Source: Candidatus Omnitrophota bacterium
GTDB taxonomy: Bacteria > Omnitrophota > Gorgyraeia > Gorgyraeales > Gorgyraeaceae
Assembly (NCBI GenBank): GCA_030649895.1
Contig: JAUSEX010000020.1
Location: forward strand, 23,109 to 87,108
Length of the DNA stretch: 64,000 nucleotides
Direction of reading: 5' to 3'
Shown here: positions 3,300-61,960 of the stretch, piece after piece
Layout: every line of letters starts with the position of its first letter
How positions within the stretch are numbered: position 1 is the stretch's first letter
Program-made: the position numbers and the translations under genes
Notes under the pieces: generated by a model
What the model was told of the DNA's origin: nothing
Databases searched by the model: none
Seen by the model: the letters and a program-made list of their open reading frames with translations, nothing else

Positions 3300-5381
3300 A
3301 TGATTCATAGAGTCGAAAGAAAAATAGGCAAAGAGACAATTATTATAGAAACAGGAAAGATGGCAAAACAGGCAAATAGCGCCGTGTGCGTCCGGTATGG
3401 GGGCACAGTGGTCCTGGTTACGGCTGTTTGCTCAAATGAACGAAGAGAAGGCATTGATTTCTTTCCTCTCACAGTGGAATATCAGGAAAAAACATACGCA
3501 GCGGGCAGGATCCCCGGAGGATATTTTAAGCGCGAAGGAAAACCCACTGAAAAAGAGATCTTAACCTCAAGGCTTATAGACAGGCCCATAAGGCCTCTTT
3601 TTCCGAAAGGTTTTATTAATGATGTCCAGGTTGTCGCTATGGTTCTTTCAAGCGACGGGCAAAATGATTCCGACATACTTGCGATCATAGGCGCTTCCTG
3701 CGCTTTAGCTATTTCCGATATACCTTTTATGGGGCCTATGGGAGCGGTAAGGATTGGTTTAGTGGCCGGAGAATTTGTGATCAACCCTACTTTCAAAGAA
3801 CTGGAAGAAAGTTCATTAAACATGGTTTCGGCGGGGCTTAAGGACAGGATTATAATGTTAGAGGCAGGAGCGAATCAGGTGTCGGAAGAGAAGATGCTTG
3901 AGGCGATAGAACTAAGCCAGGAATTTATAAAACTAAGCATAGAGCTTCAGGAAGAGCTTCAGAAAAAATGCGGCAAAGAGAAGATAAAGCCGGAATTGAA
4001 GCTTGTGTCCGGAGAACTGCTCGAAAAAGTAAAAAAACTTTCCCTGGAAGAGCTTAAAAAAATAAATTTGCTGCCCGCTAAAGAGCAGAGAGAAGATGCG
4101 TTCAATGTTTTAGCCAAGCAGATTGTGGAGAAAATGACTAAGGATGATGAGAATCTTAGCGAGGCTGACATTAAGAATGCGTTGCATGAAGTGGAAAAGA
4201 CCGAAGTCAGGAAGCATATTCTGGACAAAAAGATAAGGATAGACGCCAGGAAATATGAAGAAATAAGGCCGATAACCTGTGAAGTCGGGATTCTACCCAG
4301 GACTCATGGTTCAGGGCTTTTTACAAGAGGCCAGACCCAGAGTTTATCGATAACTACGCTTGGCACCAGCCAGGATGAGCAGAGGCTGGATACTCTTGAG
4401 GGCGAGAAATTCAAGAATTTTATGCTGCATTATAATTTTCCTCCTTTTAGCGTTGGAGAGGCAAGGCCGATGAGGGGCCCTGGCAGGCGCGAGATCGGGC
4501 ATGGCGCGTTAGCGGAAAGGGCGCTCAGGGCAGTTATGCCTTTAAATGCGGAATTTCCTTATACCGTAAGAATTGTTTCAGAGATACTTGAATCAAACGG
4601 TTCAAGCAGCATGGCAACTGTCTGCGCCAGCACTCTTTCCCTGATGGACGCAGGCGTCCCTATAAAAAAACCTGTTTCAGGTATAGCCATGGGCCTGGTA
4701 AAAGAAGGAAATGACGCGGCTATATTAACCGATATTGCCGGGTTAGAGGATCATTACGGGGATATGGATTTTAAAGTGACGGGAACCGACGCAGGCGTGA
4801 CTGCTTTGCAGATGGATCTTAAGATAGACGGGATAGACATGGACCTGATAAGAAGAATAATGAAACAGGCAACCCCTGCGAGGGCGTTTATTTTAAACAA
4901 GATCCTTGAAACGATAAACGCTCCCAGGACGGAACTCTCAGGGTATGCGCCCAGGATAACTACGCTGATGATAGACAAGGAAAAGATAGGCGCTTTAATA
5001 GGGCCCGGAGGCAAGATAATAAAAAAGATAATACAGGATACCGGCGCTACGATAGAAGTGGATGACGAAGGAAAGGTTTCAGTCGCTTCTGATAATGAAG
5101 AGGCTTCCAAAAAGGCGATCGATATGATAAAAGGTATTACAAGCGAGCCTGAGGTCGGGACGATTTACGAAGCTACTGTAAAAAAGATAATGAACTTCGG
5201 GGCGTTCTGCGAGATACTGCCAGGCAAAGAAGGCCTGGTGCATGTTTCCGAGCTCTCGGACAAGTTTGTTAAAAACGCAGAAGACGTTGTCAAGATCGGA
5301 GATAAAGTAAGAGTCAAGCTTATTAAAATAGATGAAATGGGCAGATTGAACCTGAGCATAAAACAGGCGATGGCCAGTTAG
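3300..5381 (+). CDS. pnp: Polynucleotide phosphorylase
   Basis: 693-aa protein with two RNase PH domains, KH and a C-terminal S1 domain (GKEGLVHVSELSDKFVKNAEDVVKIGDKVRVKLIKIDEMGRLNLS). Conserved position after rpsO. Confidence 0.96.
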   Translation: MIHRVERKIGKETIIIETGKMAKQANSAVCVRYGGTVVLVTAVCSNERREGIDFFPLTVEYQEKTYAAGRIPGGYFKREGKPTEKEILTSRLIDRPIRPLFPKGFINDVQVVAMVLSSDGQNDSDILAIIGASCALAISDIPFMGPMGAVRIGLVAGEFVINPTFKELEESSLNMVSAGLKDRIIMLEAGANQVSEEKMLEAIELSQEFIKLSIELQEELQKKCGKEKIKPELKLVSGELLEKVKKLSLEELKKINLLPAKEQREDAFNVLAKQIVEKMTKDDENLSEADIKNALHEVEKTEVRKHILDKKIRIDARKYEEIRPITCEVGILPRTHGSGLFTRGQTQSLSITTLGTSQDEQRLDTLEGEKFKNFMLHYNFPPFSVGEARPMRGPGRREIGHGALAERALRAVMPLNAEFPYTVRIVSEILESNGSSSMATVCASTLSLMDAGVPIKKPVSGIAMGLVKEGNDAAILTDIAGLEDHYGDMDFKVTGTDAGVTALQMDLKIDGIDMDLIRRIMKQATPARAFILNKILETINAPRTELSGYAPRITTLMIDKEKIGALIGPGGKIIKKIIQDTGATIEVDDEGKVSVASDNEEASKKAIDMIKGITSEPEVGTIYEATVKKIMNFGAFCEILPGKEGLVHVSELSDKFVKNAEDVVKIGDKVRVKLIKIDEMGRLNLSIKQAMAS

Positions 5382-5398: not shown

Positions 5399-6148
5399 AT
5401 GGGGTTATTGCAGGCGATAATTTCAGGGGTAGTGCAGGGCGTAGCTGAGTTTTTGCCGATTTCAAGCTCAGGCCATTTAGTTATTTTACATAAATTAATG
5501 GGCCTTAAAGAGCCTGAAATGCTTTTTGATATATTTTTGCACCTCGGAACCCTGGCGGCTGTATTTATAGTATTCGGCAGGGATATAGTAGAAAGTGTGA
5601 CTACTAAAAAAAGAATAGGTTTTTTGATTTTATTAAGCAGCGCCGTAACGTTTATTATCGCCCTTATTTTTATAAAAAATATAGAAGCGGCTTTCAGCAA
5701 TACTGGAACAGTCGGCGTTATGCTTGTAGTGACAGGCGTATGGCTTATAGCTGGCAATTTTATAAGGCTGGGGACGGAAGGCATGACGGTTTTTAAGGCC
5801 AGCCTGATTGGCCTTGCTCAGGGTATAGCGGCTTTACCAGGCATATCCAGGAGCGGCGCTACTATTTCTACGGGATTATTTTTAGGGCTTGACGGTCAGG
5901 CTGCAGCAAAATTCTCATTTCTATTATCCGTTCCTGCGATAATCGGCGCGTTTTTATTTAAAGTAAAAGAATCAGGGTTTGATCTTGCCGGCATAAATGT
6001 AAATTATTTTATCGGATTCTTTATATCTTGCATTGTAGGGGTTTTGTCATTAAAATTATTGTTAAAAGTTCTTTATAAGAACAAGTTTCACTGGTTCGGG
6101 GCGTATTGCATCTTGTTGGGGATAACAGCGTTATTGTTCATAAAATAA
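5399..6148 (+). CDS. uppP: Undecaprenyl-diphosphatase
   Basis: N-terminal GVVQGVAEFLPISSSGHLVIL and PGISRSGATISTGL are BacA/UppP signature motifs. 8 TM helices. Confidence 0.9.
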   Translation: MGLLQAIISGVVQGVAEFLPISSSGHLVILHKLMGLKEPEMLFDIFLHLGTLAAVFIVFGRDIVESVTTKKRIGFLILLSSAVTFIIALIFIKNIEAAFSNTGTVGVMLVVTGVWLIAGNFIRLGTEGMTVFKASLIGLAQGIAALPGISRSGATISTGLFLGLDGQAAAKFSFLLSVPAIIGAFLFKVKESGFDLAGINVNYFIGFFISCIVGVLSLKLLLKVLYKNKFHWFGAYCILLGITALLFIK

Positions 6149-8527: not shown

Positions 8528-9319
8528 ATGCCAGAGTCCTTAGGTAAGATATTAAAAAGAGCGAGAGAATCAAAACACCTTTCCCTGGAAGATGTATCCG
8601 AAAGAAGCCGCATACCGAAGCATATTGTCTCAACCATAGAGGATGACCGGCTAGGTGAAATTAAGCCTGTTTTTTATGCAAAAAGTTTTGTAAAAACATA
8701 CGCTGTTTTTTTAGGCGCCCTGAATGAACCCGGCGTAAAAGAATATCTAAGTAGAAATACGCAAGAACCGCAAAAAAAGCAGGAGATAGTCTTAAAGCCC
8801 GCCCCTAAAACCCATGGTGAAAAAATAGATTTTTCCGGCATAGCTAAGTATAAAAATCAGATGATAGCCATAATTATAGGGATATTTGCATTATGGGTGC
8901 TGTCTTTAGCTATTGGCCAGGCTGTTAAATTTGTTAAAAACAGGCCTGTAAAAAAACATGAGAAAACAACCAAGGTTAAAAAAGAGGCTTCCAAGAAAAC
9001 AGAGAAAGAGAAACCAGGGGATGCAATCGCGGTAAAAGACGTAAAAAAAGATGCCTCCGGCGGGAAATCTAGTTTTGTGGAATTGGAGATTTTCGCTTCC
9101 GATAATACATGGCTCCAGGTGACAGGCGACGGAGAAATTGTGTTTACGGGGTTGTTTAAAAAAGGCGGTAAAGATATTTGGAAGGCGAAAAAAGAAATTA
9201 AACTGGAAGCGGGCAATTCAGGCGTTGTTAAAATAAATGTAAATGGAAAACCTGCGGATTTTTCTGGTAAAAAAGGCGAAAAAAAAGAAATTATAATTAC
9301 GAAAGATGGAATAAAGTAA
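8528..9319 (+). CDS. rodZ: RodZ-like cytoskeleton protein (HTH-XRE, one TM, C-terminal DUF4115-like domain)
   Basis: N-terminal XRE HTH (LGKILKRARESKHLSLEDVSERSRIPKHIVSTIE), one TM segment (MIAIIIGIFALWVLSLAIG), a Lys-rich linker and a beta-rich C-terminal domain. Confidence 0.65.
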   Translation: MPESLGKILKRARESKHLSLEDVSERSRIPKHIVSTIEDDRLGEIKPVFYAKSFVKTYAVFLGALNEPGVKEYLSRNTQEPQKKQEIVLKPAPKTHGEKIDFSGIAKYKNQMIAIIIGIFALWVLSLAIGQAVKFVKNRPVKKHEKTTKVKKEASKKTEKEKPGDAIAVKDVKKDASGGKSSFVELEIFASDNTWLQVTGDGEIVFTGLFKKGGKDIWKAKKEIKLEAGNSGVVKINVNGKPADFSGKKGEKKEIIITKDGIK

Positions 9320-9335: not shown

Positions 9336-10601
9336 ATGCAAAAAACAATCAGCGTTATAAGCCTTGGTTGTCCGAGAAATCTCGTAGATTCTGAAAAACT
9401 CGTGTCTAATTTTATAAAAAAGGGTTACAGGTTTCATGAGGGTATATTAAATTCTGATACTGTAATCGTGAATACGTGCGCTTTTATAGAAGACGCCAAG
9501 AGAGAGTCGATAGACAGTATTCTTAAAGTAATAGACGCCAAGAAAGCAGGCCGCGTTAAAAAGGTTATAGTGGCGGGCTGTTTATCGGAGAGATATAGAA
9601 ATGAACTGGCGGATGACTTAAGAGAGGTGGATGAGTTTAGAGGGGTCCTGAATTTCGATGAATGCGGGGGGCGGTCGCGGCCGTCTGCCGTAAGGCTTAC
9701 GCCAAGACACTATGCGTATGTCAAGATTTCAGAAGGGTGCGCCAACAGGTGCGCTTATTGCGTGATACCTTATTTAAAAGGTAACTATAAAAGCAGGGCT
9801 ATAAGGCCTATAGTTAACGAGGTAGCGCAATTAATCGATAAAGGCGCGAGAGAGATTATTTTAGTAGGCCAGGACACTTCTTTATACGGGATAGATTTGT
9901 ATGGAAAAAAGAGACTGGGAGGCCTGTTAAAAGAGTTAGTTAAGATTTCAAAAGATGCGTGGATAAGATTATTGTACCTGCATCCGGCGAATTTAGATGA
10001 AGAAATTATCAAGGTTATAAGGGATAATAAAAATATATGCAGGTATATAGATTTGCCACTTGAGCATATTAATGATAGAATATTAAATAAGATGCGCAGG
10101 AGGATAAATAAAAAGGAGATAGCGTCTCTTGTAGAGCTTATAAGAAAAGAAATACCGGGTGTAGGCATAAGGACTTCATTTATAGTAGGTTTTCCTGGAG
10201 AAACGGAAAAAGAATTCAAAGAGCTGGCGTCTTTCGTGAAAGAGAAAAAATTTGAGAGGCTCGGTGTTTTTAAATATTCAAAGGAAGAAGGCACCCCGGC
10301 CTATTCGTACAAAAACCAGATCTCAGAAAAAGACAAAGAAAGAAGATTTAACAGGTTGATGTTGGAGCAAAAGGGCGTGTCCGTAAAAATAAACGAAGGT
10401 TTGGTGGGCAAGGTGCTGAAAGTGCTTGCAGAGGAAAAAGGTAAGGATTATTATATAGGCAGGACAGAATACGATGCGCCTGAAATAGACGGACTTGTGT
10501 ATATTAAAGGCAAAGATTTGAAGATAGGGAATTTTTATAATATCAGAATAACCGATGCGTATGAATATGACCTTGTAGGTAATTATGAATCTGGCGAATA
10601 A
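9336..10601 (+). CDS. rimO: Ribosomal protein S12 methylthiotransferase RimO (MiaB-family radical SAM)
   Basis: N-terminal ISLGCPRNLVDSE, radical SAM CANRCAYCVIP, a C-terminal TRAM domain. About 420 aa, typical of RimO rather than MiaB. Confidence 0.7.
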   Translation: MQKTISVISLGCPRNLVDSEKLVSNFIKKGYRFHEGILNSDTVIVNTCAFIEDAKRESIDSILKVIDAKKAGRVKKVIVAGCLSERYRNELADDLREVDEFRGVLNFDECGGRSRPSAVRLTPRHYAYVKISEGCANRCAYCVIPYLKGNYKSRAIRPIVNEVAQLIDKGAREIILVGQDTSLYGIDLYGKKRLGGLLKELVKISKDAWIRLLYLHPANLDEEIIKVIRDNKNICRYIDLPLEHINDRILNKMRRRINKKEIASLVELIRKEIPGVGIRTSFIVGFPGETEKEFKELASFVKEKKFERLGVFKYSKEEGTPAYSYKNQISEKDKERRFNRLMLEQKGVSVKINEGLVGKVLKVLAEEKGKDYYIGRTEYDAPEIDGLVYIKGKDLKIGNFYNIRITDAYEYDLVGNYESGE

Positions 10602-16396: not shown

Positions 16397-19006
16397 ATGA
16401 ATGTTGACGAGATAAGAGAAAGATATTTAAGTTTTTTTAAGGCAAGAGGCCACAGGATCTATCCGAGCGATTCGCTTGTGCCGGCTAATGATCCGTCGCT
16501 TTTGTTTACAGGCGCTGGCATGAACCAGTTTAAGGAAGAATTCCTGGGCAGGGTTAAGGGGTCGGCTAGGGCGGCTACGTGCCAGAAATGCATCAGGACG
16601 GGAGATTTGAAAAACGTAGGCAGGACAGCTGGGCATCATACATTTTTTGAAATGCTGGGCAATTTTTCTTTCGGGGATTATTTTAAGAAAGACGCTATCT
16701 TATGGGCGTGGGAATTTCTTGTAAAAGAGCTTGGCATTAAAGAAGAAGATTTATGGATTTCTGTCTATAAGGAGGATAAAGAGGCGTATGAGATATGGAG
16801 GGATACGGTAAAAATCCCGGAGCGGAAGATTTTAAAGTTAGGCGAAAAAGATAATTTCTGGCCGTCCAATGCCCCCAGCGACGGGCCTGACGGACCATGC
16901 GGCCCGTGTTCCGAGATATTTTTCGGCGGGCCTGACGGCGCAGAGATATGGAATCTTGTTTTTACGCAATTTGACAGAAAAGACGGAGGCAGATTAGAGC
17001 CGCTGCCCTGCAAGAATATAGATACCGGCATGGGCCTGGAAAGAATTGCCAGGGTAATGCAGGGCAAGAAGACGAATTTTGAGATAGATTCTTTTGTAAC
17101 TATCATAGAAGCTATAATAAACCTATCCCGTTCTCCGAACGGGAACGGAGAAGAAGACCTTTCTGTTCCCGTTCGGAGAACGGGAACCGGTCAAAATGTG
17201 AATGCGATTGCGGACCATATAAGGGCTGTGACTTTTGCAATATCTGACGGGGTCCTGCCTTCAAATGAAGAAAGGGGTTATGTAATACGAAAACTTATAA
17301 GGAAGGCATTTTGGTACGGGAGAAGCCTGGGCATTGACAAGCCCTTTTTATACAAGATAGTCCCTGTGGTGGCGCAAGTTATGAAAAGGCCTTATCCTGA
17401 AGTTGCGGATCACAGGGAGAGTATAAGCCAGATAGTGATGGAAGAGGAAAAAAGATTTAAAAATACAATAGACGAAGGTACCGAAAGATTGAAAACAATG
17501 CTGACCGAATCCAAGGAATCAGGCGTTTTATCTGGAGAGCATATATTTAAATTGTATGACACTTACGGATTTCCATGTGAATTAACGCAGGAGATAGCAG
17601 GCGTTGAAAATATAAAAGTGGATATAGAGGGTTTTAAAGCGCTTATGGAAAACCAGCGCTCTATATCAAAACAAGGGAGTAAGATCGCGGGCAATATATT
17701 TAACGTGGAAGGGAACATCAATATAAAGCTGCCCGATGCCGCTCGTTTTATAGAAGATAAGGAAGACATAAAAACCCAGGTAGTTCAAATAATTTCAGAA
17801 GGTGACTTGAAAAATGAGATAGGCAAAAGGGACAAGGCCAGCATTTTTTTAAAAGAAACTGTTTTTTATGGCGAAAAAGGCGGGCAGGTAGGCGATAAAG
17901 GGGTAATTTTAAAAGACGAAAAGATAATCGCGGACGTGATAAACGTTATTGATATAGCAGGCAGGGCGCAGCATGAAATAGAGATGAAAGAAGGTGTTTT
18001 AAAAACCGGGGACAGCGTTACCGCAAAGGTTGATATCGGCCGCAGGGAAGACATAAAGAAAAACCACACCGCTACGCACCTTCTGCATAATGCACTGAGA
18101 AAGGTTTTGGGCATGCACGTAAAACAGGCAGGGTCCATGGTAGCGCCGGACAGGCTGCGTTTTGATTTTTCGCATTTTAAGGCAGTCACAAAAGAAGAGC
18201 TTTTAAGAATAGAAGAGATAGTAAATGAGAACATAAGGAAAGATTCCGTGGTCAGCATAGATGAGCTGAGCATGGAAGAGGCTAAGAAAAAAGATGTAAT
18301 AGCGCTTTTCGGAGAGAAATACGGGGATGTGGTGAGGATGGTGTCCGCGGGCGATTATTCCAGAGAGTTATGCGGCGGGACTCATGTAAAAAGGACAGGC
18401 GAAATAGGCGTTTTTAAAATTATCTCCGAGTCTTCTATCGCCAGCGGGATGAGAAGGATCGAAGCTGTTACAGGTAGAACAGCTTATGAGCGGATAAAAC
18501 AGGAAGAGGCTGTTATAAAGGATATTGCGCGGGAATTAAATGTAAAACCGGAGGATATAGCTAAGGAAATAGAAAAATTGGCAAACAGATTAAAACAGAT
18601 GGAAAAAACCCTCGAAGTTTTTATCAATAAAAACGCTCAGGATAACGTAAATAGCCTTTTTGGATCGATGAAAAAAATAAAAGGCATCGATGTGATAATC
18701 GGCAGCATTAAAAATGCAGATTCTTCTTTATTGAGAAAAAACGCGGACCTGTTAAGAGACAGGCTTGTAAACGGTATATTTATGCTTGCGGCTGAAGCGG
18801 ACGGAAAGATCGCGATTATAGTAGGCGCTGGAAAATCGCTTCAGCCCGGAAAGATCGATGCGGTGAAAATTTTAAATGATATAGGTGCTGATTTTGGGAT
18901 AAAAGGCGGTGGCAGGCAGGATTTTGCTCAAGCAGGCAGCCGCTCAGGCCCTAGGCTTCAGGATATATTAAAAAAAGCGGAAGGGATTATAGAGGGGTAT
19001 ATATGA
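16397..19006 (+). CDS. alaS: Alanine--tRNA ligase
   Basis: 869-aa canonical AlaRS: catalytic domain, editing-domain HxxxH/CxxxH (HTATHLLH...CGGTHV) and C-Ala domain. Contains an in-frame 58-nt palindromic element at 17127-17184. Confidence 0.97.
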   Translation: MNVDEIRERYLSFFKARGHRIYPSDSLVPANDPSLLFTGAGMNQFKEEFLGRVKGSARAATCQKCIRTGDLKNVGRTAGHHTFFEMLGNFSFGDYFKKDAILWAWEFLVKELGIKEEDLWISVYKEDKEAYEIWRDTVKIPERKILKLGEKDNFWPSNAPSDGPDGPCGPCSEIFFGGPDGAEIWNLVFTQFDRKDGGRLEPLPCKNIDTGMGLERIARVMQGKKTNFEIDSFVTIIEAIINLSRSPNGNGEEDLSVPVRRTGTGQNVNAIADHIRAVTFAISDGVLPSNEERGYVIRKLIRKAFWYGRSLGIDKPFLYKIVPVVAQVMKRPYPEVADHRESISQIVMEEEKRFKNTIDEGTERLKTMLTESKESGVLSGEHIFKLYDTYGFPCELTQEIAGVENIKVDIEGFKALMENQRSISKQGSKIAGNIFNVEGNINIKLPDAARFIEDKEDIKTQVVQIISEGDLKNEIGKRDKASIFLKETVFYGEKGGQVGDKGVILKDEKIIADVINVIDIAGRAQHEIEMKEGVLKTGDSVTAKVDIGRREDIKKNHTATHLLHNALRKVLGMHVKQAGSMVAPDRLRFDFSHFKAVTKEELLRIEEIVNENIRKDSVVSIDELSMEEAKKKDVIALFGEKYGDVVRMVSAGDYSRELCGGTHVKRTGEIGVFKIISESSIASGMRRIEAVTGRTAYERIKQEEAVIKDIARELNVKPEDIAKEIEKLANRLKQMEKTLEVFINKNAQDNVNSLFGSMKKIKGIDVIIGSIKNADSSLLRKNADLLRDRLVNGIFMLAAEADGKIAIIVGAGKSLQPGKIDAVKILNDIGADFGIKGGGRQDFAQAGSRSGPRLQDILKKAEGIIEGYI
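17127..17184. repeat. Double-hairpin palindromic element CCCGTTCTCCGAACGGGAAC-N18-GTTCCCGTTCGGAGAACGGG inserted in frame in alaS
   Basis: The two 20-nt arms are perfect reverse complements, and each arm is itself a hairpin (CCCGTTC/GAACGGG). Encodes SPNGNGEEDLSVPVRRTGT within AlaRS. A relative lies at 21474. Confidence 0.8.
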
Positions 19007-20225: not shown

Positions 20226-20852
20226 ATGAAAAAACGTATAGCTAGGATAGCCAGAAAAACTAAAGAAACCAATATAGTCGTTAAACTATCTATTGATGGC
20301 AAAGGTGAGTCGGATATTAAAACAGGCGTGGGTTTCCTGGATCATATGCTTACGCTTTTTGCGAAACATGGCTTCTTTGACCTGGAGATATCCGCTAAAG
20401 GCGACCTGGACGTGGATATTCATCATACCAATGAAGACGTGGGCATCACGCTCGGAAGCGCATTTAAAAAAGCCCTTGGGGATAAAAAAAGCATAACCAG
20501 GTTCGGGGATAGTTTTGTCCCTATGGACGGTTGTCTCGTGAGGGTAGTCGCGGATATAAGCAACAGGCCGTCTTTGCATATACACTATAAAACAAAACGC
20601 GACATAGAGAACCTGTTAACCAATCTTGCGATAGGCGATAGCGTAAAATACTCTTTTGTTAATCTGGAACAATTCAGCCAGGCGTTTGTCGCGAATGCGG
20701 GCATTAATATGCATATAGAAATTCTCGCGTTTGATAAGGACCTGCATCATTTAATAGAGGCTGTTTTTAAGGCAATGGGCCGTTCTCTTGACGAGGCGAC
20801 TCAGATTGATAAGAGGGCAAAAGGCGTTCCGTCTACCAAGGGCAAGCTTTAA
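20226..20852 (+). CDS. hisB: Imidazoleglycerol-phosphate dehydratase
   Basis: RKTKETNIVVKLSIDG...GFLDHMLTLFAKHG...DIHHTNEDVGITLG are IGPD signature motifs. Confidence 0.9.
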   Translation: MKKRIARIARKTKETNIVVKLSIDGKGESDIKTGVGFLDHMLTLFAKHGFFDLEISAKGDLDVDIHHTNEDVGITLGSAFKKALGDKKSITRFGDSFVPMDGCLVRVVADISNRPSLHIHYKTKRDIENLLTNLAIGDSVKYSFVNLEQFSQAFVANAGINMHIEILAFDKDLHHLIEAVFKAMGRSLDEATQIDKRAKGVPSTKGKL

Positions 20853-20853
20853 G

Positions 20854-21468
20854 ATGATAGTTATTATTGATTACGGGATGGGGAATTTAAGGAGCGTTCA
20901 GAAGGCGTTTGAAAGATTCTGTTCAAATGTTATAGTGAGCCGGTCTGCGAAGGATATTCAAAAGGCGGATAAGATAGTATTGCCAGGCGTAGGGGCTTTT
21001 AAGGTGGCAATGGATGAGCTGGAGAAAAGAGATTTAGTGGGGCCGATAAAAGATTCAATAAAAAATGGCAGGCCTTTTTTAGGCATATGCCTTGGGCTGC
21101 AGCTCTTGTTTTCCGAGAGCGAAGAGGGCGGGAAGATAAAAGGCCTGGATATAATAAAGGGCAAGGTTAAGAGATTTAGAGAACAACGCGGATTAAAGAT
21201 ACCGCATATGGGGTGGAATAATATTAAGCTTAATGCTAAATGCTCGAGGCTCAAGGCGATGAATGAAATCAAGAGCGGGAGTTATATGTATTTTGTGCAC
21301 TCGTATTATGCGGCGCCGAAAGACAAAAAAGTGATTTTATGCGAAACAGATTATGGCGGAAACTTTACCTCGGGCATTCATAAAGATAATGTATACGGTT
21401 TTCAATTTCATCCTGAAAAAAGCCAGGGAGCTGGTCTAAAGATAATAGAAAACTTCGTTGATTTGTGA
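20854..21468 (+). CDS. hisH: Imidazole glycerol phosphate synthase glutaminase subunit
   Basis: MIVIIDYGMGNLRSV...LPGVGAF...GICLGLQLLF (Cys nucleophile)...HPEKS are class I glutamine amidotransferase motifs. The ORF track begins earlier at an internal Met; ATG 20854 follows the hisB stop. Confidence 0.9.
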   Translation: MIVIIDYGMGNLRSVQKAFERFCSNVIVSRSAKDIQKADKIVLPGVGAFKVAMDELEKRDLVGPIKDSIKNGRPFLGICLGLQLLFSESEEGGKIKGLDIIKGKVKRFREQRGLKIPHMGWNNIKLNAKCSRLKAMNEIKSGSYMYFVHSYYAAPKDKKVILCETDYGGNFTSGIHKDNVYGFQFHPEKSQGAGLKIIENFVDL

Positions 21469-21473
21469 CCGAA

Positions 21474-21517
21474 TCCCGTTCGTCGATCGGGAACTATTTC
21501 CCGATCGACGAACGGGA
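21474..21517. repeat. Palindromic element of the same CCCGTTCG/CGAACGGG family in the hisH-hisA spacer
   Basis: TCCCGTTCGTCGATCGGGAA-CTATT-TCCCGATCGACGAACGGGA is an 18-bp perfect IR with a 5-nt loop. Confidence 0.75.
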
Positions 21518-21528
21518 TAGGTGTAAAT

Positions 21529-22257
21529 ATGATAATAATACCAGCGATAGACATTATTGGCGGCAAGGTTGTAAGGCTTGAAAAAGGCGATTTTGGCAAA
21601 GAGAAGGTTTACGCTTTAGATCCCGTGGAAACTGCAAGAGTGTGGGAATCCAAAGGCGCAGAATTTTTGCACATAGTTGATCTGGACGGGGCAAAAGAAG
21701 GCAAAATAAAAAACGCCAAGCTGGTGGTTAAAATCATAGAAGCCGTAAAGATACCATGTGAAATAGGCGGCGGCTTAAGGGATATAAGCGACATAGAGTA
21801 TTTTTTGAAAAAAGGGGCGGCTCGCGCAGTGGTCGGCACAAAGGCCTTTGAAGACACCGAATATTTCGAGAAGATTGTGCATAAATTTAATAAAAGAATA
21901 GTCGTTAGCGTGGATTTTTCAGATAACAAGGTTGTAAAAAAAGGCTGGCAGGAAAAGATAGACCTGAAACCGCTGGATGCCATCAGGTCCATGGAAAAGA
22001 TAGGCGTGGCGAGGATCGTGGTTACTGATATTAAGACGGACGGGATGCTGAAAGGCCCGAACTTAAAAAGATTAAGAGAGATTCTTGGCGCGACAAAGAT
22101 TTTAATAATAGCGTCCGGAGGCATTTCGTCTTTGGAAGACATAAAAGAGCTTAAGGAAATAAAAAACAATAGATTAGAGGGCGTTATTATCGGCAAGGCG
22201 CTGTACGAGGGCAGGATGGACCTGCGGAAAGCCATAGAGATCGCGAGACAACGATGA
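21529..22257 (+). CDS. hisA: ProFAR isomerase
   Basis: IIPAIDIIGGKVVRLEKGDF and (beta/alpha)8 HisA motifs. Confidence 0.9.
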   Translation: MIIIPAIDIIGGKVVRLEKGDFGKEKVYALDPVETARVWESKGAEFLHIVDLDGAKEGKIKNAKLVVKIIEAVKIPCEIGGGLRDISDIEYFLKKGAARAVVGTKAFEDTEYFEKIVHKFNKRIVVSVDFSDNKVVKKGWQEKIDLKPLDAIRSMEKIGVARIVVTDIKTDGMLKGPNLKRLREILGATKILIIASGGISSLEDIKELKEIKNNRLEGVIIGKALYEGRMDLRKAIEIARQR

Positions 22258-23063: not shown

Positions 23064-23404
23064 AGAGCTTAGGGTTTAAGGTTGAAGGCTTAAAGTTTGA
23101 CAAGGACGGATTGATCCCTGCGATAGTGCAGGAATATGAGACCGGAGAGGTCTTGATGCTGGCGTATATGAATAAGGATTCCCTGAAGAAGACATTAAGG
23201 CTTAAAAAGACATGTTTCTGGTCAAGGTCCAGGCAAAAATTCTGGATAAAAGGAGAAACCTCTGGAAATTTTCAGGTTGTTAAGGCGGTTTATTATGATT
23301 GCGACATGGATACCCTGCTTATCAAAGTAAGGCAGATGGGAGATTGTGTCGCGTGTCATACGGGAAACAAGAGTTGTTTCTACCGTAAAATAAAAACTGC
23401 ATAG
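23060..23404 (+). CDS. hisI: Phosphoribosyl-AMP cyclohydrolase
   Basis: 114-aa protein with GLIPAIVQ...[17 protein letters not shown]...CDMDTLL...CH is HisI-like. Overlaps hisF by 4 nt. Confidence 0.85.
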
Positions 23405-45997: not shown

Positions 45998-48013
45998 ATG
46001 TCCAAATTTGAATTAATCAGTTCATTTAAGCCGTGCGGGGATCAGCAGCAGGCTATAGATAAGCTTATTGACGGTCTGCAAAAACGCCTGAAGCGTCAGA
46101 CGCTTCTTGGGGTCACGGGCAGCGGCAAGACGTTTACTATGGCTAACGTGGTGGCTAATATTCAGAAGCCAACGCTTGTGATCTCGCATAATAAAACTCT
46201 GGCTGCTCAGTTATACAGCGAATTCAAAGAGTTTTTTCCTCATAATGCCGTAGAATATTTTGTCAGCTACTATGATTATTACCAGCCGGAGGCGTATGTG
46301 CCGCAAGCGGATATTTATATAGAAAAAGATGCTTCTATAAATGACAATATAGACAGGCTCAGGCTTTCCGCCACCAGTTCCCTGATGTCGAGGACAGATG
46401 TTATTATAGTTGCGAGCGTTTCGTGCATTTACGGCCTTGGTTCTCCCGGGGATTACGAGGATTTATTGTTATTTTTAAAAAAAGGAGATATTATAAAAAG
46501 AAACGACCTGTTATTCAGGCTTGTAAATATACATTACGCCAGGAATGACATTGATTTTAAGAGAGGTTGTTTCAGGGTCAGGGGAGATACAATAGATATC
46601 TTTCCTGCGTATAAAGAGACCTTTTTCAGGATAATTTTTTTCGGGGATGAGGTAGAAAAGATTTCTGAATTAGATCCTGTCGGCGGAAACACCATGGCAG
46701 ATTTTATCGAAAAGATAGCCGTATATCCCGCCAAACATTTTGTTATCACCCAGGACAGGATAAACTTAGCTATACAATCAATAGAAGCGGAGCTTGGAGA
46801 GAGGCTTAAAGAATTAAGATCTCAGAATAAGTTGCTGGAGGCCCAGAGGCTTGAGTCCAGGACTCATTATGACATTGAGATGCTTCAGGAGGTGGGGTTT
46901 TGTAACGGCATCGAAAACTATTCCAGGCATTTGAGCGCCAGGGCTTCCGGCTCGAGGCCTTACTGTCTTTTGGATTATTTTCCAAAAGATTTTCTGACGA
47001 TAATAGACGAATCGCATGTTACCGTGCCGCAAATAAGGGGCATGTATAATGGAGACCGCGGCCGCAAACAGACCCTGGTTGATTATGGATTCAGGCTTCC
47101 GTCAGCCCTGGATAACAGGCCTTTAAATTTTGAAGAATTTTTAGGTATTGTCAAGGATATGATATTCGCTTCGGCTACGCCGTCGGAATATGAGCTGCAA
47201 AATTCAAACAAGATAGTCGAGCAGGTTATAAGGCCGACGGGATTATTAGACCCCGAAATAATCGTTAAGCCTACTGAAAATCAGATACAGGACCTTGTTG
47301 AAAATATAAAAGAAAGGGTTGCTAAAAAACAGAGGGTCCTGGTGACTACGTTGACAAAGAGGATGTCAGAAGATCTTGCCGGATATTTGAAAGAATTGGG
47401 CTTGAGCGTGCAGTATATACACTCGGAATTAGATACTATTGAGAGGGCGGAGATATTAAGGGATTTAAGGATGCGGAAGTTTGACTGCCTGGTGGGTATA
47501 AATTTATTAAGGGAAGGCCTGGATCTGCCGGAGGTATCTTTGGTGGCTATCCTGGATGCAGATAAAGAAGGTTTCTTGAGGTCAGAGACAGCTTTAATGC
47601 AGGTGGCGGGCAGGGCAGCCAGGAACATAGATGGCTATGTCATAATGTACGCTGATACTGTGACAAATTCAATGAGAAAGGCGATTGACGAGACGGATAG
47701 AAGAAGAAAAAAACAGGCGGAGTTTAATAAGGCGAATAATATTACGCCAAGATCCATCGAAAAGGCTATTAAGGACGGGATAGAATCGTTCAAGAAGGCA
47801 GAAGAGATCGTTATTGAGGCGGCCGGACAGAGCGAAGAAGAGTACGAAAAAGAAATGCTTATCGTTGAGCTTGAGAGAGAGATGGAGCTTTACGCTAGAA
47901 ATTTACAGTTCGAACGCGCAGCAAAATTAAGAGATAAAATAAAAGCATTAAAAGATAGGGACGGTTCTGAAGCTAATCGGAGAAGTGTCCCTGAAAAAAG
48001 GGGACAGGTTTAG
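45998..48013 (+). CDS. uvrB: Excinuclease ABC subunit B
   Basis: GDQQQAI..L..G......[14 protein letters not shown], helicase motifs, C-terminal UvrB/UvrC interaction domain ([25 protein letters not shown]). Confidence 0.97.
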
Positions 48014-48054
48014 CTTTAGCTTCAGAACCGTCCCTGGGTACAGGTATTTACTTT

Positions 48055-59190: not shown

Positions 59191-59276
<86 letters not shown>

Positions 59277-59386
59277 CTGTTGTTTTAAATATTTGTGGGA
59301 CATATAAAGGATTCGAAGAGAGTCCTGATAGATGCGACTAACAGGAGCATCTGTTTATCAGGACGAGTGGCCGACCCGAAGCGAAG

Positions 59387-59407
59387 CGGAGGGCGCCGAA
59401 TCCTTCT
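59387..59407 (+). repeat. Direct repeat of the last 21 nt of tRNA-Tyr (GAATCCTTCTCTGCCCACCA plus the preceding GCGCC), an att-like duplication
   Basis: Exact match to 59256-59276, lying 110 bp downstream of the intact tRNA. Confidence 0.7.
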
Positions 59408-59487
59408 CTGCCCACCAAATCCGCTGAAAGCGGATTTGATCTTGAGATTGCGACTGAATAAGGAGCAATCGAAAGACCTTATAAATA

Positions 59488-59732
59488 TGGATTTTTGGCA
59501 TGTCTATATCATAGAATGTAAAGATAAGAAATTTTATGTAGGCATAGCCAAAGATTTAGATAATCGCATTAAATTACATAGCAAAGGGCTGGCTTGTAGG
59601 TTTACAAAATATAGGAAGTTTATTAGATTAGTTTATAAAGAAACTTATAATACCAAGTCAGAAGCAAGAAAAAGAGAATTAGAAATAAAAGGGTATAAGA
59701 GAGAGAAAAAGTTAGAGTTGGCAGGTGGATAG
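59488..59732 (+). CDS. GIY-YIG nuclease superfamily protein (COG2827 / UPF0213-like small endonuclease)
   Basis: 81-aa protein: WHVYIIECKDKKFYVGIAKDLDNRIKLHSKG...EARKRELEIKGYKREKK matches the GIY-YIG fold motifs (YIYxL..G..YVG..D...R...H) and conserved Arg/Glu. The longer track ORF (59295) runs through the tRNA-fragment repeat and is probably not translated. Confidence 0.8.
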
Positions 59733-60843: not shown

Positions 60844-60999
60844 ACATCGCAAGCCATAGCCATTCCTTCCGACTGAAAGCCAGCCAATAAAATAAGTCCT
60901 TGTGTTCATAAGAGAGAATTGATATAATTTTAGTATGAGCTTCCAGACATCTCAATTTAAATTGTGGCGGAAACGCTACGGAAAGACCCTTGTGCTTTG

Positions 61000-61029
61000 A
61001 GTCTGGATCTCGCACGGGGGTTTTTTATT
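61000..61029 (+). terminator. Candidate intrinsic terminator: GC stem followed by a T6 run
   Basis: CCCTTGTGC...GCACGGGGG TTTTTT ATT lies downstream of hicA. The stem is imperfect. Confidence 0.35.
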
Positions 61030-61039
61030 CAGAATAGGT

Positions 61040-61960
61040 TTCAGAAACTAATAGTGATATACCTTCCGACTGCGCACAGTCGGCCGAATGAGAAGATAGC
61101 TCGTCTACGGCTCGCAAGCCGTAGTTTACATAACGAAAGTTATGTAAAAGAGCTAAGCCAGTAATCACCGACCGTTATAGAGGTAATAAAGCTAAAGGGC
61201 ATACAGGCATTAAGCACGAACCCGCCTACATAGTAGACGGGACACAGTCATCACGCCGCGCGTGATGTCTGTGGGTGATTAAAGGTAAATAGTGGCATAT
61301 TCTTGAGGCAAACCACAAGAATGTGCCTCTATTTACCGCTGCCTGTATGCGTTCCTTAAATTCTTTATTACCTCTGTAACGGGAACCGACTATAGTGGAC
61401 ACTATAGGCGGTTAGGTGATGTATGGCGGTTCTTCGAATGGGCTTGTGATGTTGATGTGTTGAAGAGTTTCTATGCGTATTAACGTATGCCAGGGACACT
61501 GAGACGCTTGGAATATCGAAGACAAACGGATACACAATGGCGATGATAGTTTTTAGTAGTCGCAGCGAACCTGAACAATCGAAGCGTTCGCATTGGACAC
61601 ATTGATGGATTTGACATATCGCAGCGAACCTAAATAGTCGAAGATGTTGCCTAAGACGGCGGGCAGTTTAATTTGTTGAAGCGTTCGCATTGGACGCATG
61701 TTGGAGTTGAATATCACGCGAAACGTACTCACATAGAGTGTGGCTCGGATGAAGATGTAGCGCAGCGAAGCGCGCCTCCGAAGGACGACTCGCCGAATAG
61801 GCGAGACGGCGCGCGGAGCGGAGCGGGTCAACGCTGAAGATGTAGCGACACGACGAATAGGAGTGTCGCGGGCATAGGAAAGGAGAAGCTCGTTCTCGCG
61901 AGAAGCGAGAACGAGCGGACGACTGGCAGTTTAATTTGAAGTAATGAGCGCGAAGCGGCC
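61040..61960 (+). other. GC-rich, hairpin-dense noncoding block: three perfect tetraloop hairpins, a roughly 220-nt nested inverted repeat, then degenerate tandem hairpin repeats
   Basis: Hairpins CCGACTG-CGCA-CAGTCGG (61066-61083), CTACGGCT-CGCA-AGCCGTAG (61105-61124), TACATAAC-GAAA-GTTATGTA (61128-61147). Outer IR 61165-61208 pairs with 61329-61384. Repeated modules CGCAGCGAACCT..TCGAAG / GAAGCGTTCGCATTGGAC occur twice, and GGCAGTTTAATTTG twice. 12-bp perfect hairpin GCTCGTTCTCGC-GAGAA-GCGAGAACGAGC at 61888-61916. Confidence 0.6.

Follow-up and report, generated by a model that had tools for sequence, protein, structure and literature searches.

Why should the gene for an essential synthetase carry, in frame, a long and perfectly symmetric palindrome? 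The question is raised by alaS, the gene for alanine--tRNA ligase (AlaRS), on contig JAUSEX010000020.1 of a Candidatus Omnitrophota bacterium (assembly GCA_030649895.1), of which we analysed a stretch of 64,000 nucleotides (positions 23,109 to 87,108, forward strand), hereafter the window. A preliminary description, made from the letters of the window alone, had drawn attention to the element. We conclude, with a probability of roughly 0.6, that it is a selfish repeat resembling a REP (repetitive extragenic palindrome) or REPIN (two inverted REPs around a spacer), tolerated in a disordered linker of the enzyme and kept symmetric by copying or conversion.

A double-hairpin palindrome lies in frame within alaS

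The product of the host open reading frame (ORF) matches solved AlaRS structures (E = 5e-128) and has the same sequence (100% identity) as MDO8602546.1 at NCBI, a protein of a Candidatus Omnitrophota metagenome-assembled genome (MAG). Read directly, the palindrome has CCCGTTCTCCGAACGGGAAC as its first arm and, after 18 nt, GTTCCCGTTCGGAGAACGGG as its second; the two are exact reverse complements (Table 1). The preliminary description had reported just such a pair of 20-nt arms, and it was also right that each arm is a hairpin in itself: both have the form CCCGTTC-NNN-GAACGGG, with a 7-bp CCCGTTC/GAACGGG stem. With TCC as the loop of one arm and GGA as that of the other, the second unit is a genuinely inverted copy of the first. 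A repeat search extends the arms to 24 nt at 96% complementarity, with one mismatch (17126-17149 / 17162-17185). Because codon 244 (TCC) begins at 17126 (17126-17128), the element, 60 nt or 20 codons long, spans residues 244-263 in frame. Its spacer differs in length by 9 and 15 nt among aligned relatives, varying only in multiples of 3.

As RNA, the element has a minimum free energy (MFE) of -52.3 kcal/mol (z = -9.2), and as DNA of -31.4 kcal/mol (z = -8.9). In the RNAfold structure the stem reaches into the spacer through G-U pairs. An alternative fold with two hairpins has -27.2 kcal/mol; folded singly, arm 1 has -11.0 and arm 2 -14.6 kcal/mol. When the whole window was scanned in sliding 60-nt folds (mean -9.9, standard deviation 4.5), the two extreme outliers were the alaS element, the most stable at -49.4, and an element in the hisH-hisA spacer, at -44.5. 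The alaS motif, with up to 2 mismatches allowed, occurs 4 times in the window against 0.06 expected, and the chance expectation for a perfect 20-nt inverted repeat with a loop of at most 30 nt in the window is about 2e-6. The palindrome is real, beyond chance, and no artefact.

Table 1. The alaS element, its neighbours and related palindromes. Positions are those of the window unless preceded by an L number, our handle for a compared locus; MFE values are in kcal/mol.
Feature	Position or loci	Strand	Description
Whole palindromic element (REPIN-like doublet)	17126..17185	+	Encodes residues 244-263, SRSPNGNGEEDLSVPVRRTG, in frame
Arm 1, first REP-like unit	17127..17146	+	Hairpin CCCGTTC-TCC-GAACGGG, then AAC
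Spacer between arms	17147..17164	+	GGAGAAGAAGACCTTTCT; partly self-complementary
Arm 2, second REP-like unit, inverted	17165..17184	+	GTT, then hairpin CCCGTTC-GGA-GAACGGG
alaS, alanine--tRNA ligase, 869 aa (host gene)	16397..19006	+	ORF list; solved AlaRS structures match
hisH	20788..21468	+	ORF list; synteny with L001/L002 (Pfam GATase there); upstream of intergenic copy
Intergenic F1 member, hisH-hisA spacer	21473..21518	.	ATCCCGTTCGTCGATCGGGAA / CTAT / TTCCCGATCGACGAACGGGAT
hisA	21529..22257	+	ORF list; synteny with L001/L002 (Pfam His_biosynth there); downstream of intergenic copy
Family F1 at the alaS site	window, L202, L203, L006, L009		CCG[AT]TC-N3-GA[AT]CGG doublets; MFE -52.3 (window)
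Family F2 at the alaS site	L012, L021; diverged in L008		CCACCTGCCAGGTGAGCCAG...; CCACCCCTGGGGTGGACCAG...; MFE -44 to -59
Family F3 at the alaS site	L007		CCAGCTGCGCTATCCGGAT...; MFE -44
Family F4 at the alaS site	L014		CCTGTCCCGCCGACGCAGCGGGACAGG..., also a hairpin doublet with inverted loops; MFE -65
Family F5 at the alaS site	L020		CCCCTCACCCTGACCCTCTCCCC...; MFE -47
Family F6 at the alaS site	L022, L204		AACCTCGGAGGTTGCC...; MFE -55 / -48
Family F7 at the alaS site	L205		CACCGCGTAGGTGGGGCAGG...; MFE -48
CCCTGCCTGCCGGCAGGCAGGG copies in L049	L049:1291-1313, 2186-2245, 5277-5300, 5949-5970, 8707-8730		alaS copy possibly flanked by direct repeat TATCCGCTA

The palindrome lengthens a predicted disordered loop

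Loop length was scored as the distance between the GMGLER and (A)DH anchors in 120 Omnitrophota AlaRS homologues. The modes lie at 49-51 residues, and the window AlaRS has 64. Its nearest relative (P0002, locus L004, 85% identity) has 14 residues fewer and keeps the second hairpin alone, TCC GTT CGG CGA ACG GGA. Another close relative (P0004, 83-84% identity) has the loop KHAGTTPNMNIVN, 15 residues shorter (26 versus 41 in the window) and resembling the AG.SPN.NTVN loops of more distant Omnitrophota. Alignment with the Aquifex AlaRS leaves a gap of 10 residues at the position of the palindrome. The indel that the preliminary description had proposed to look for among orthologues is thus there, and 20 codons do lie in frame. 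Its figure of about 19 extra residues was too high, however: the excess over the loops of the nearest orthologues is only 14-15 residues, and over that of Aquifex about 10. Nor are the residues encoded by the palindrome conserved in distant AlaRS, as judged by sequence alignments.

Where the insert begins is less clear. The left hairpin encodes RSPNGN, like the ancestral (R)SPN.N, and alleles of the same palindrome family (F1) read LSRSPNGN...; the window codons TCT CCG AAC GGG AAC match ACT CCA AAC ATG AAC of a relative with no insert (L206) at 11 of 15 nt. This resemblance to the ancestral SPN.N codons makes the left boundary uncertain, and the insertion is not the whole 58 nt.

An AlphaFold model of the AlaRS, built on 100 homologues (mean pLDDT 85.8), shows residues 246-263 as coil between helices 231-245 and 264-283, with pLDDT <50 at 250-262. 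The missing insert in orthologues and the low-confidence coil suggest that the insert is a disordered extension of a linker, predicted to lie outside conserved catalytic or tRNA-binding elements as far as can be told. The location first proposed for it, in the catalytic/tRNA-recognition region, is not borne out by the model, which puts it in a predicted disordered linker between helices.

Relatives carry unrelated palindromes at the same codon position

We took the DNA of the alaS loop from 80 alaS loci and six further contigs, and defined a close clade by an AlaRS identity of at least 60%. Within this clade, the same codon position is occupied by long, mostly perfect palindromes of mutually unrelated sequence. 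At least 8 different families of long palindromes occur at the loop site in related Omnitrophota (F1 to F7 are given in Table 1), with MFE values of -44 to -65 kcal/mol in L007, L008, L009, L012, L014, L020, L021, L022, L204 and L205. The motif of arm 1 is kept in alaS of L202, L203, L006, L009, L010, L011, L015, L017 and L023. Six loci have a decayed half only (L004, L010, L011, L015, L017, L023), and others have no stem at all, with MFE values of -3 to -16 kcal/mol (L005/L206, L016, L018, L019, L042, L081). Distant AlaRS loci are free of such structures, save for a few independent inserts (L049, L059). Palindrome alleles of different families have the flanks (N/D)LS...GQKVN in common, and their stems frequently continue into the common flanking sequence AACCT...AGGTT. 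The insert is old and conserved within the clade rather than the product of a recent hit.

How well the arms themselves are preserved was judged against silent sites. Identity at four-fold sites of alaS between the window and relatives is 0.44-0.59, close to saturation. Despite this, the F1 arms are nearly identical between the window and L202 and are still complementary, which suggests that both symmetry and sequence are kept by copying. In an alignment of five alaS doublets, a small sample whose structure was derived from one of its own members, 91% of the cells of the long hairpin are paired, compared with 30-58% in slid controls, and 7 pairs are altered on both sides, a number reached in 0 of 500 shuffles. 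The two-hairpin reading is equally well kept (92% paired). Compensation extends to the loops of the small hairpins, which are TCC/GGA in the window and GCC/GGC in L202, and in L009 a T-A pair has become A-T in all four half-stems.

Family members recur at intergenic junctions

The preliminary description had pointed to a relative of the palindrome between hisH and hisA. That relative is real: its 21-nt arms are 100% complementary around a 4-nt loop (MFE -44.5), and its arm, ATCCCGTTCGTCGATCGGGAA, shares about 85% identity with that in alaS. The junction itself is a recurrent palindrome site. Among eight relatives (L004, L009, L013, L014, L015, L017, L021, L023) it alternates between a 7-nt overlap of the two genes and spacers of 21-65 nt filled by palindromes; the overlap, with no spacer, is found in L004, L013, L017 and L023. 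The palindromes at this junction belong to three families, F1 in the window, F4 in L014 and F2 in L015. In the L014 copy, 22 nt of the arm agree 100% with the arm found in that genome's own alaS. All that is left at the L009 junction is a remnant half-unit, CCGAACGG, as though the element seen in the window had been deleted there and had left a footprint.

Dispersed copies were sought by BLAST and hairpin scans of the sequence flanking the alaS loci. The palindrome family has copies in intergenic DNA: besides the hisH-hisA spacer, F1 occurs upstream at L012:840-879 and at the uvrB-birA junction in L159:956-994. F5 is found outside alaS at L081:293-340, and F7 in intergenic DNA at L009:4747 and L012:13859, so that 5 of the 7 palindrome families of the close clade are also intergenic. 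A more distant relative, L049 (AlaRS 43% identical), has a family of its own, CCCTGCCTGCCGGCAGGCAGGG, with one copy in the alaS loop and four intergenic. In 391 kb of close-clade loci there are 20 matches to the F1 motif, and in 812 kb of loci of distant organisms there are 0; 15 of the 20 are at the alaS site and 5 elsewhere. In the window, F1 doublets occupy two loci in 64 kb (alaS and hisH-hisA).

Further palindromes came to light at other genes. One in-frame site lies at about codon 110 of a radical-SAM miaB/rimO-like gene (window ORF 9336-10601), where relatives have perfect GTAG...CTAC palindromes (L012:4589-4618 and L013:3439-3467, for example AGTAGGGGGCGGTCGCGACCGTCCCCTACT) and the window has a decayed version, GCGGGGGGCGGTCGCGGCCGTCTGCCGTA, at 9664-9692, encoding ECGGRSRPSAV. 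Another involves uvrB, whose last approximately 19 codons and stop lie, in the window, inside a 79-nt imperfect palindrome that reaches the birA spacer (47957-48035; outer 18-bp stem AGGGACGGTTCTGAAGCT / AGCTTCAGAACCGTCCCT). At the same junction of L159, a third recurrent site, the F1-type palindrome yields a different UvrB tail, NSDRRTK*. The AlaRS loops of P0010, P0035, P0042, P0056 and P0083 read PLTLTLSPEGRGEGEG or similar and are encoded by a C-rich/G-rich hairpin, CCCCTCACCC...GGGTGAGGGG, that also occurs outside alaS at L081:293-340. Peptides of this type in database proteins are likely to be repeat-derived rather than genuine protein motifs.

A scan of contigs for the pattern TCCCGTTCNNNGAWCGGGAA gave, among the matches listed, mostly single, chance-like matches in high-GC genomes, and only the L159 match was relevant. 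One Haliscomenobacter genome appeared four times among the matches listed and a second once (L111, L132, L140, L163, L144); these may represent an unrelated family of hairpin repeats of that genus. Six single matches in a scan of viral contigs were treated as chance.

A REP/REPIN-like repeat as the preferred explanation

Since the element is extra relative to orthologues, encodes unconserved residues and has family copies in intergenic DNA, a repeat or MITE-like nature (a MITE being a miniature inverted-repeat transposable element) is the best reading. The preliminary description had suggested as much, and the dispersed copies would imply mobility. The repeat consists of two inverted copies of a hairpin unit, with the consensus CCG[A/T]TC-N3-GA[A/T]CGG flanked by T/GGGAA, around a short spacer. 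It lies in a permissive surface linker that joins the final helix of the aminoacylation domain to the opening helix of the domain that follows, and would be transcribed and translated with alaS into about 15 additional loop residues, tolerated by the enzyme; landing in a disordered linker with the frame kept would explain its survival there. The same family and several sister families occupy intergenic junctions of this and related Omnitrophota genomes, probably as selfish or neutral passengers. The symmetry of the arms could be kept by copying, through template switching within the element or hairpin-templated repair, through conversion from other genomic copies, or through re-insertion, for which a structure-specific (RAYT/IS200-like) enzyme encoded elsewhere is a candidate agent (RAYT, REP-associated tyrosine transposase).

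Several observations weigh against this explanation. No transposase or RAYT domain was found by Pfam in the ORFs at 28.7-64 kb, a result that does not include a dedicated search for an Omnitrophota RAYT. The first 28 kb of the window hold housekeeping genes by synteny, and no Y1/HUH transposase is present in the annotated neighbourhoods of related alaS loci. RAYT genes are single-copy, so their lack in one window says little. Inspection of the ends at 17126/17185 reveals no target-site duplication. Nor is the high abundance that marks REPs seen here, with two loci in 64 kb and most F1 matches in alaS itself. The F1 hairpin and its sequence are kept in alaS far beyond the silent-site expectation, which could equally mean functional selection. 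The flanks shared across families fit turnover in place better than independent insertion, and P0004, with no insert, nests among insert alleles in a neighbor-joining tree. Sliding-window identities reveal no recombination tract around the P0004 loop, beyond the loop itself, that would account for this nesting. On the history of the site these points pull in different directions: the common flanks and the outer AACCT/AGGTT pairing argue for one ancient event with turnover, whereas the nesting of P0004 without a recombination tract argues the opposite. The loop seems to have been occupied by palindromes either persistently, after one hit, or repeatedly, and both can be argued.

With regard to target-site duplications in relatives, possible flanking direct repeats, TATCCGCTA, surround the alaS insert of L049. 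An apparent 11-nt duplication at L059 proved to be largely pre-existing in a relative, L047, and was not used as evidence.

Many lineages have a long stem at this codon position despite different sequence, which might also reflect selection for a nucleic-acid structure whose occupant sequence is exchangeable, either an mRNA hairpin (a pause at the domain boundary, an RNase III or processing site, a stabiliser) or a protein-bound DNA hairpin or cruciform. The retention of the F1 arms and their pairing at near-saturated four-fold divergence is consistent with this, as are the frequent extension of stems into the common flanks and the two G-U pairs that lengthen the stem in the sense RNA only; intercistronic REPs, moreover, are known to affect mRNA stability, according to work cited in PMC3337134. 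Yet the several close relatives with no stem and those with a decayed half only imply that the structure is dispensable. The element also lacks a terminator-like tail on the sense strand, which led us to reject a terminator reading, and has no Rfam match at gathering or permissive thresholds, the only gathering-level matches in the window being two tRNAs. Finally, the same families lie at unrelated junctions (hisH-hisA, uvrB-birA), as dispersed repeats would. Overall, we consider selection for structure unlikely. Still less likely, in our view, is a maintained "hairpin slot", in which selection or a dedicated enzyme would keep a long perfect palindrome at the AlaRS domain boundary and at a few operon junctions (hisH-hisA, uvrB-birA) across this Omnitrophota clade, swapping cores between families and preserving the outer ends ACCT.TCC...GGA.AGGT; such a slot would serve mRNA or DNA metabolism and parallel, in a coding region, the partnership of REPIN and RAYT. 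A separate idea, that the stem mimics the tRNA-Ala acceptor stem for autoregulation by AlaRS, was dropped on inspection, the stem being pure Watson-Crick with no G3:U70-like feature.

Template switching is an established mutational mechanism that yields perfect symmetry, and the palindrome could have been born in place if such switching extended the ancestral (G)RSPN.N quasi-palindrome, CGTTC...GAACG, to a hairpin and then to an inverted doublet, with the intergenic copies secondary or convergent. The perfect symmetry would be the expected product. Hairpin 1 overlaps residues seemingly homologous to the ancestral AG.SPN.NTVN loops, as the partial match with L206 also indicates, and most F1 motif matches are in alaS itself. 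Nevertheless, F1, four other clade families and the L049 family all have copies at unrelated intergenic sites, which requires transfer between loci, and the L014 copy matches the alaS arm of its own genome perfectly over 22 nt. Nor can at least 8 unrelated palindromes at one site all arise from the same ancestral codons. Birth in place is therefore unlikely. It is very improbable that the extra peptide is an adaptive feature of AlaRS, such as a new interaction loop, with the DNA palindrome incidental. The loop is expressed in an essential enzyme and its frame is kept in all lineages, but its sequence is wholly different between close relatives, absent in some and predicted to be disordered; it is the nucleotide symmetry that is conserved, not the amino acids. 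As for a fold-back chimera of assembly or amplification, the source is a MAG and chimeric reads can yield perfect palindromes, but this one lies mid-contig, in frame and free of stops, and other samples, assembled independently, have yielded homologous doublets at this very codon (L202, L203, L006, L009). The chance of such an artefact is negligible. The REP/REPIN-like repeat thus remains the explanation that we favour.

Comparison with known palindromic elements

As described in PMC3116915 and PMC3337134, a REPIN forms a near-perfect hairpin with compensatory changes and has an alternative "clover" form. The alaS element shares much with the REPINs, REPs and BIMEs of Proteobacteria. It is made of inverted short palindromic units around a short spacer, folds into a long hairpin that is near-perfect and more stable than its two-hairpin ("clover") alternative (-52.3 versus -27.2 kcal/mol), gives each unit a palindromic core of its own and keeps its hairpin by compensatory changes (the 7 two-sided pair changes). 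Several families per lineage, a place at intercistronic junctions, and orthologous sites with lineage-specific sequences are further points in common. There are also clear differences. The alaS copy lies inside a gene and is translated, whereas the definition of REPs places them outside genes, where the sister copy at 21473-21518 also lies. The element measures 60 nt rather than about 89-110 nt, and F1 has no GTAG-type head. Two loci in 64 kb compare with a REPIN criterion of tens to hundreds per genome, and REPINs have a cognate RAYT gene, typically flanked by REPs, whereas none was seen in the window ORFs at 28.7-64 kb. Finally, the host belongs to the Omnitrophota and not to the Proteobacteria.

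Rickettsia palindromic elements (RPEs) lie in frame in unrelated housekeeping genes and also between genes, and add a fold-compatible peptide, according to the account in PMC10969869, which cites Ogata et al. 2000. Here, too, a palindromic repeat is in frame in a coding gene (alaS and, in relatives, the miaB-like gene and the uvrB tail) and has copies elsewhere. RPEs, however, are about 100-150 bp long with a conserved peptide per family, whereas these elements are about 45-63 nt and their peptide is not conserved. No sequence relationship is claimed, since RPEs were compared by description and not against RPE consensus sequences. In Omnitrophota, moreover, families replace each other at one site, and symmetry is perfect rather than decaying. 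The same source, in the part concerned with bacterial intragenic MITEs (ERIC, Correia/NEMIS, cyanobacterial), describes small non-autonomous hairpin repeats that can fuse in frame with ORFs (PMC10969869). The alaS element is likewise small, hairpin-forming and fused in frame with its host ORF. In MITEs, in contrast, terminal inverted repeats enclose an unrelated core, and a target-site duplication is usual; the alaS element consists of the inverted repeat throughout, and the window shows no evident duplication.

Mitochondrial double-hairpin elements (DHEs) were reportedly described by Paquin et al. 2000. Repetitive hairpin-forming elements (RHEs) of mitochondria are treated in PMC2800124. Like the alaS element, the DHEs and RHEs of Allomyces, sponges and fungi are short, GC-rich two-hairpin elements, dispersed in the intergenic DNA of an AT-rich genome and now and then located within its coding or rRNA genes. 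They differ in being organellar, of other sequence families and with no known link to bacterial REPs, and the likeness is a resemblance only.

The elements are therefore of known kinds (REPIN/RPE-like). What is new is the intragenic site in an essential synthetase, the occurrence in Omnitrophota, and the turnover of families at one codon site. By definition REP/REPIN repeats lie outside genes, and the best-known ones are those of Proteobacteria, and in-frame palindromes are a textbook oddity of Rickettsia; an uncultured phylum combines both behaviours, with a translated symmetric doublet in an essential AlaRS and copies between genes. The loci form a natural series for following the survival of long perfect palindromes in coding DNA, the homogenisation of arms and the reuse of particular sites. 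There is also a practical warning, in that such inserts inflate and diversify protein loops in MAG proteomes and can mislead alignments and phylogenies.

Other structured or mobile-looking regions of the window

Between ORFs at about 60950-61950 lies a region of about 1 kb that is dense with strong hairpins (MFE to -33 per 60 nt) and has a GC content of up to 0.73 in a 42% GC genome. Its sole ORF (61553-61831, minus strand) has no Pfam match, and Rfam gives no match in the region at permissive thresholds either; a structured RNA not yet described, or several repeat elements clustered together, may account for it. Directly after a tRNA-Tyr gene (59191-59276), a small ORF with a GIY-YIG domain (59295-59732) carries a 12-bp hairpin in its 5' part (59414-59440) and may be the remnant of a mobile endonuclease.

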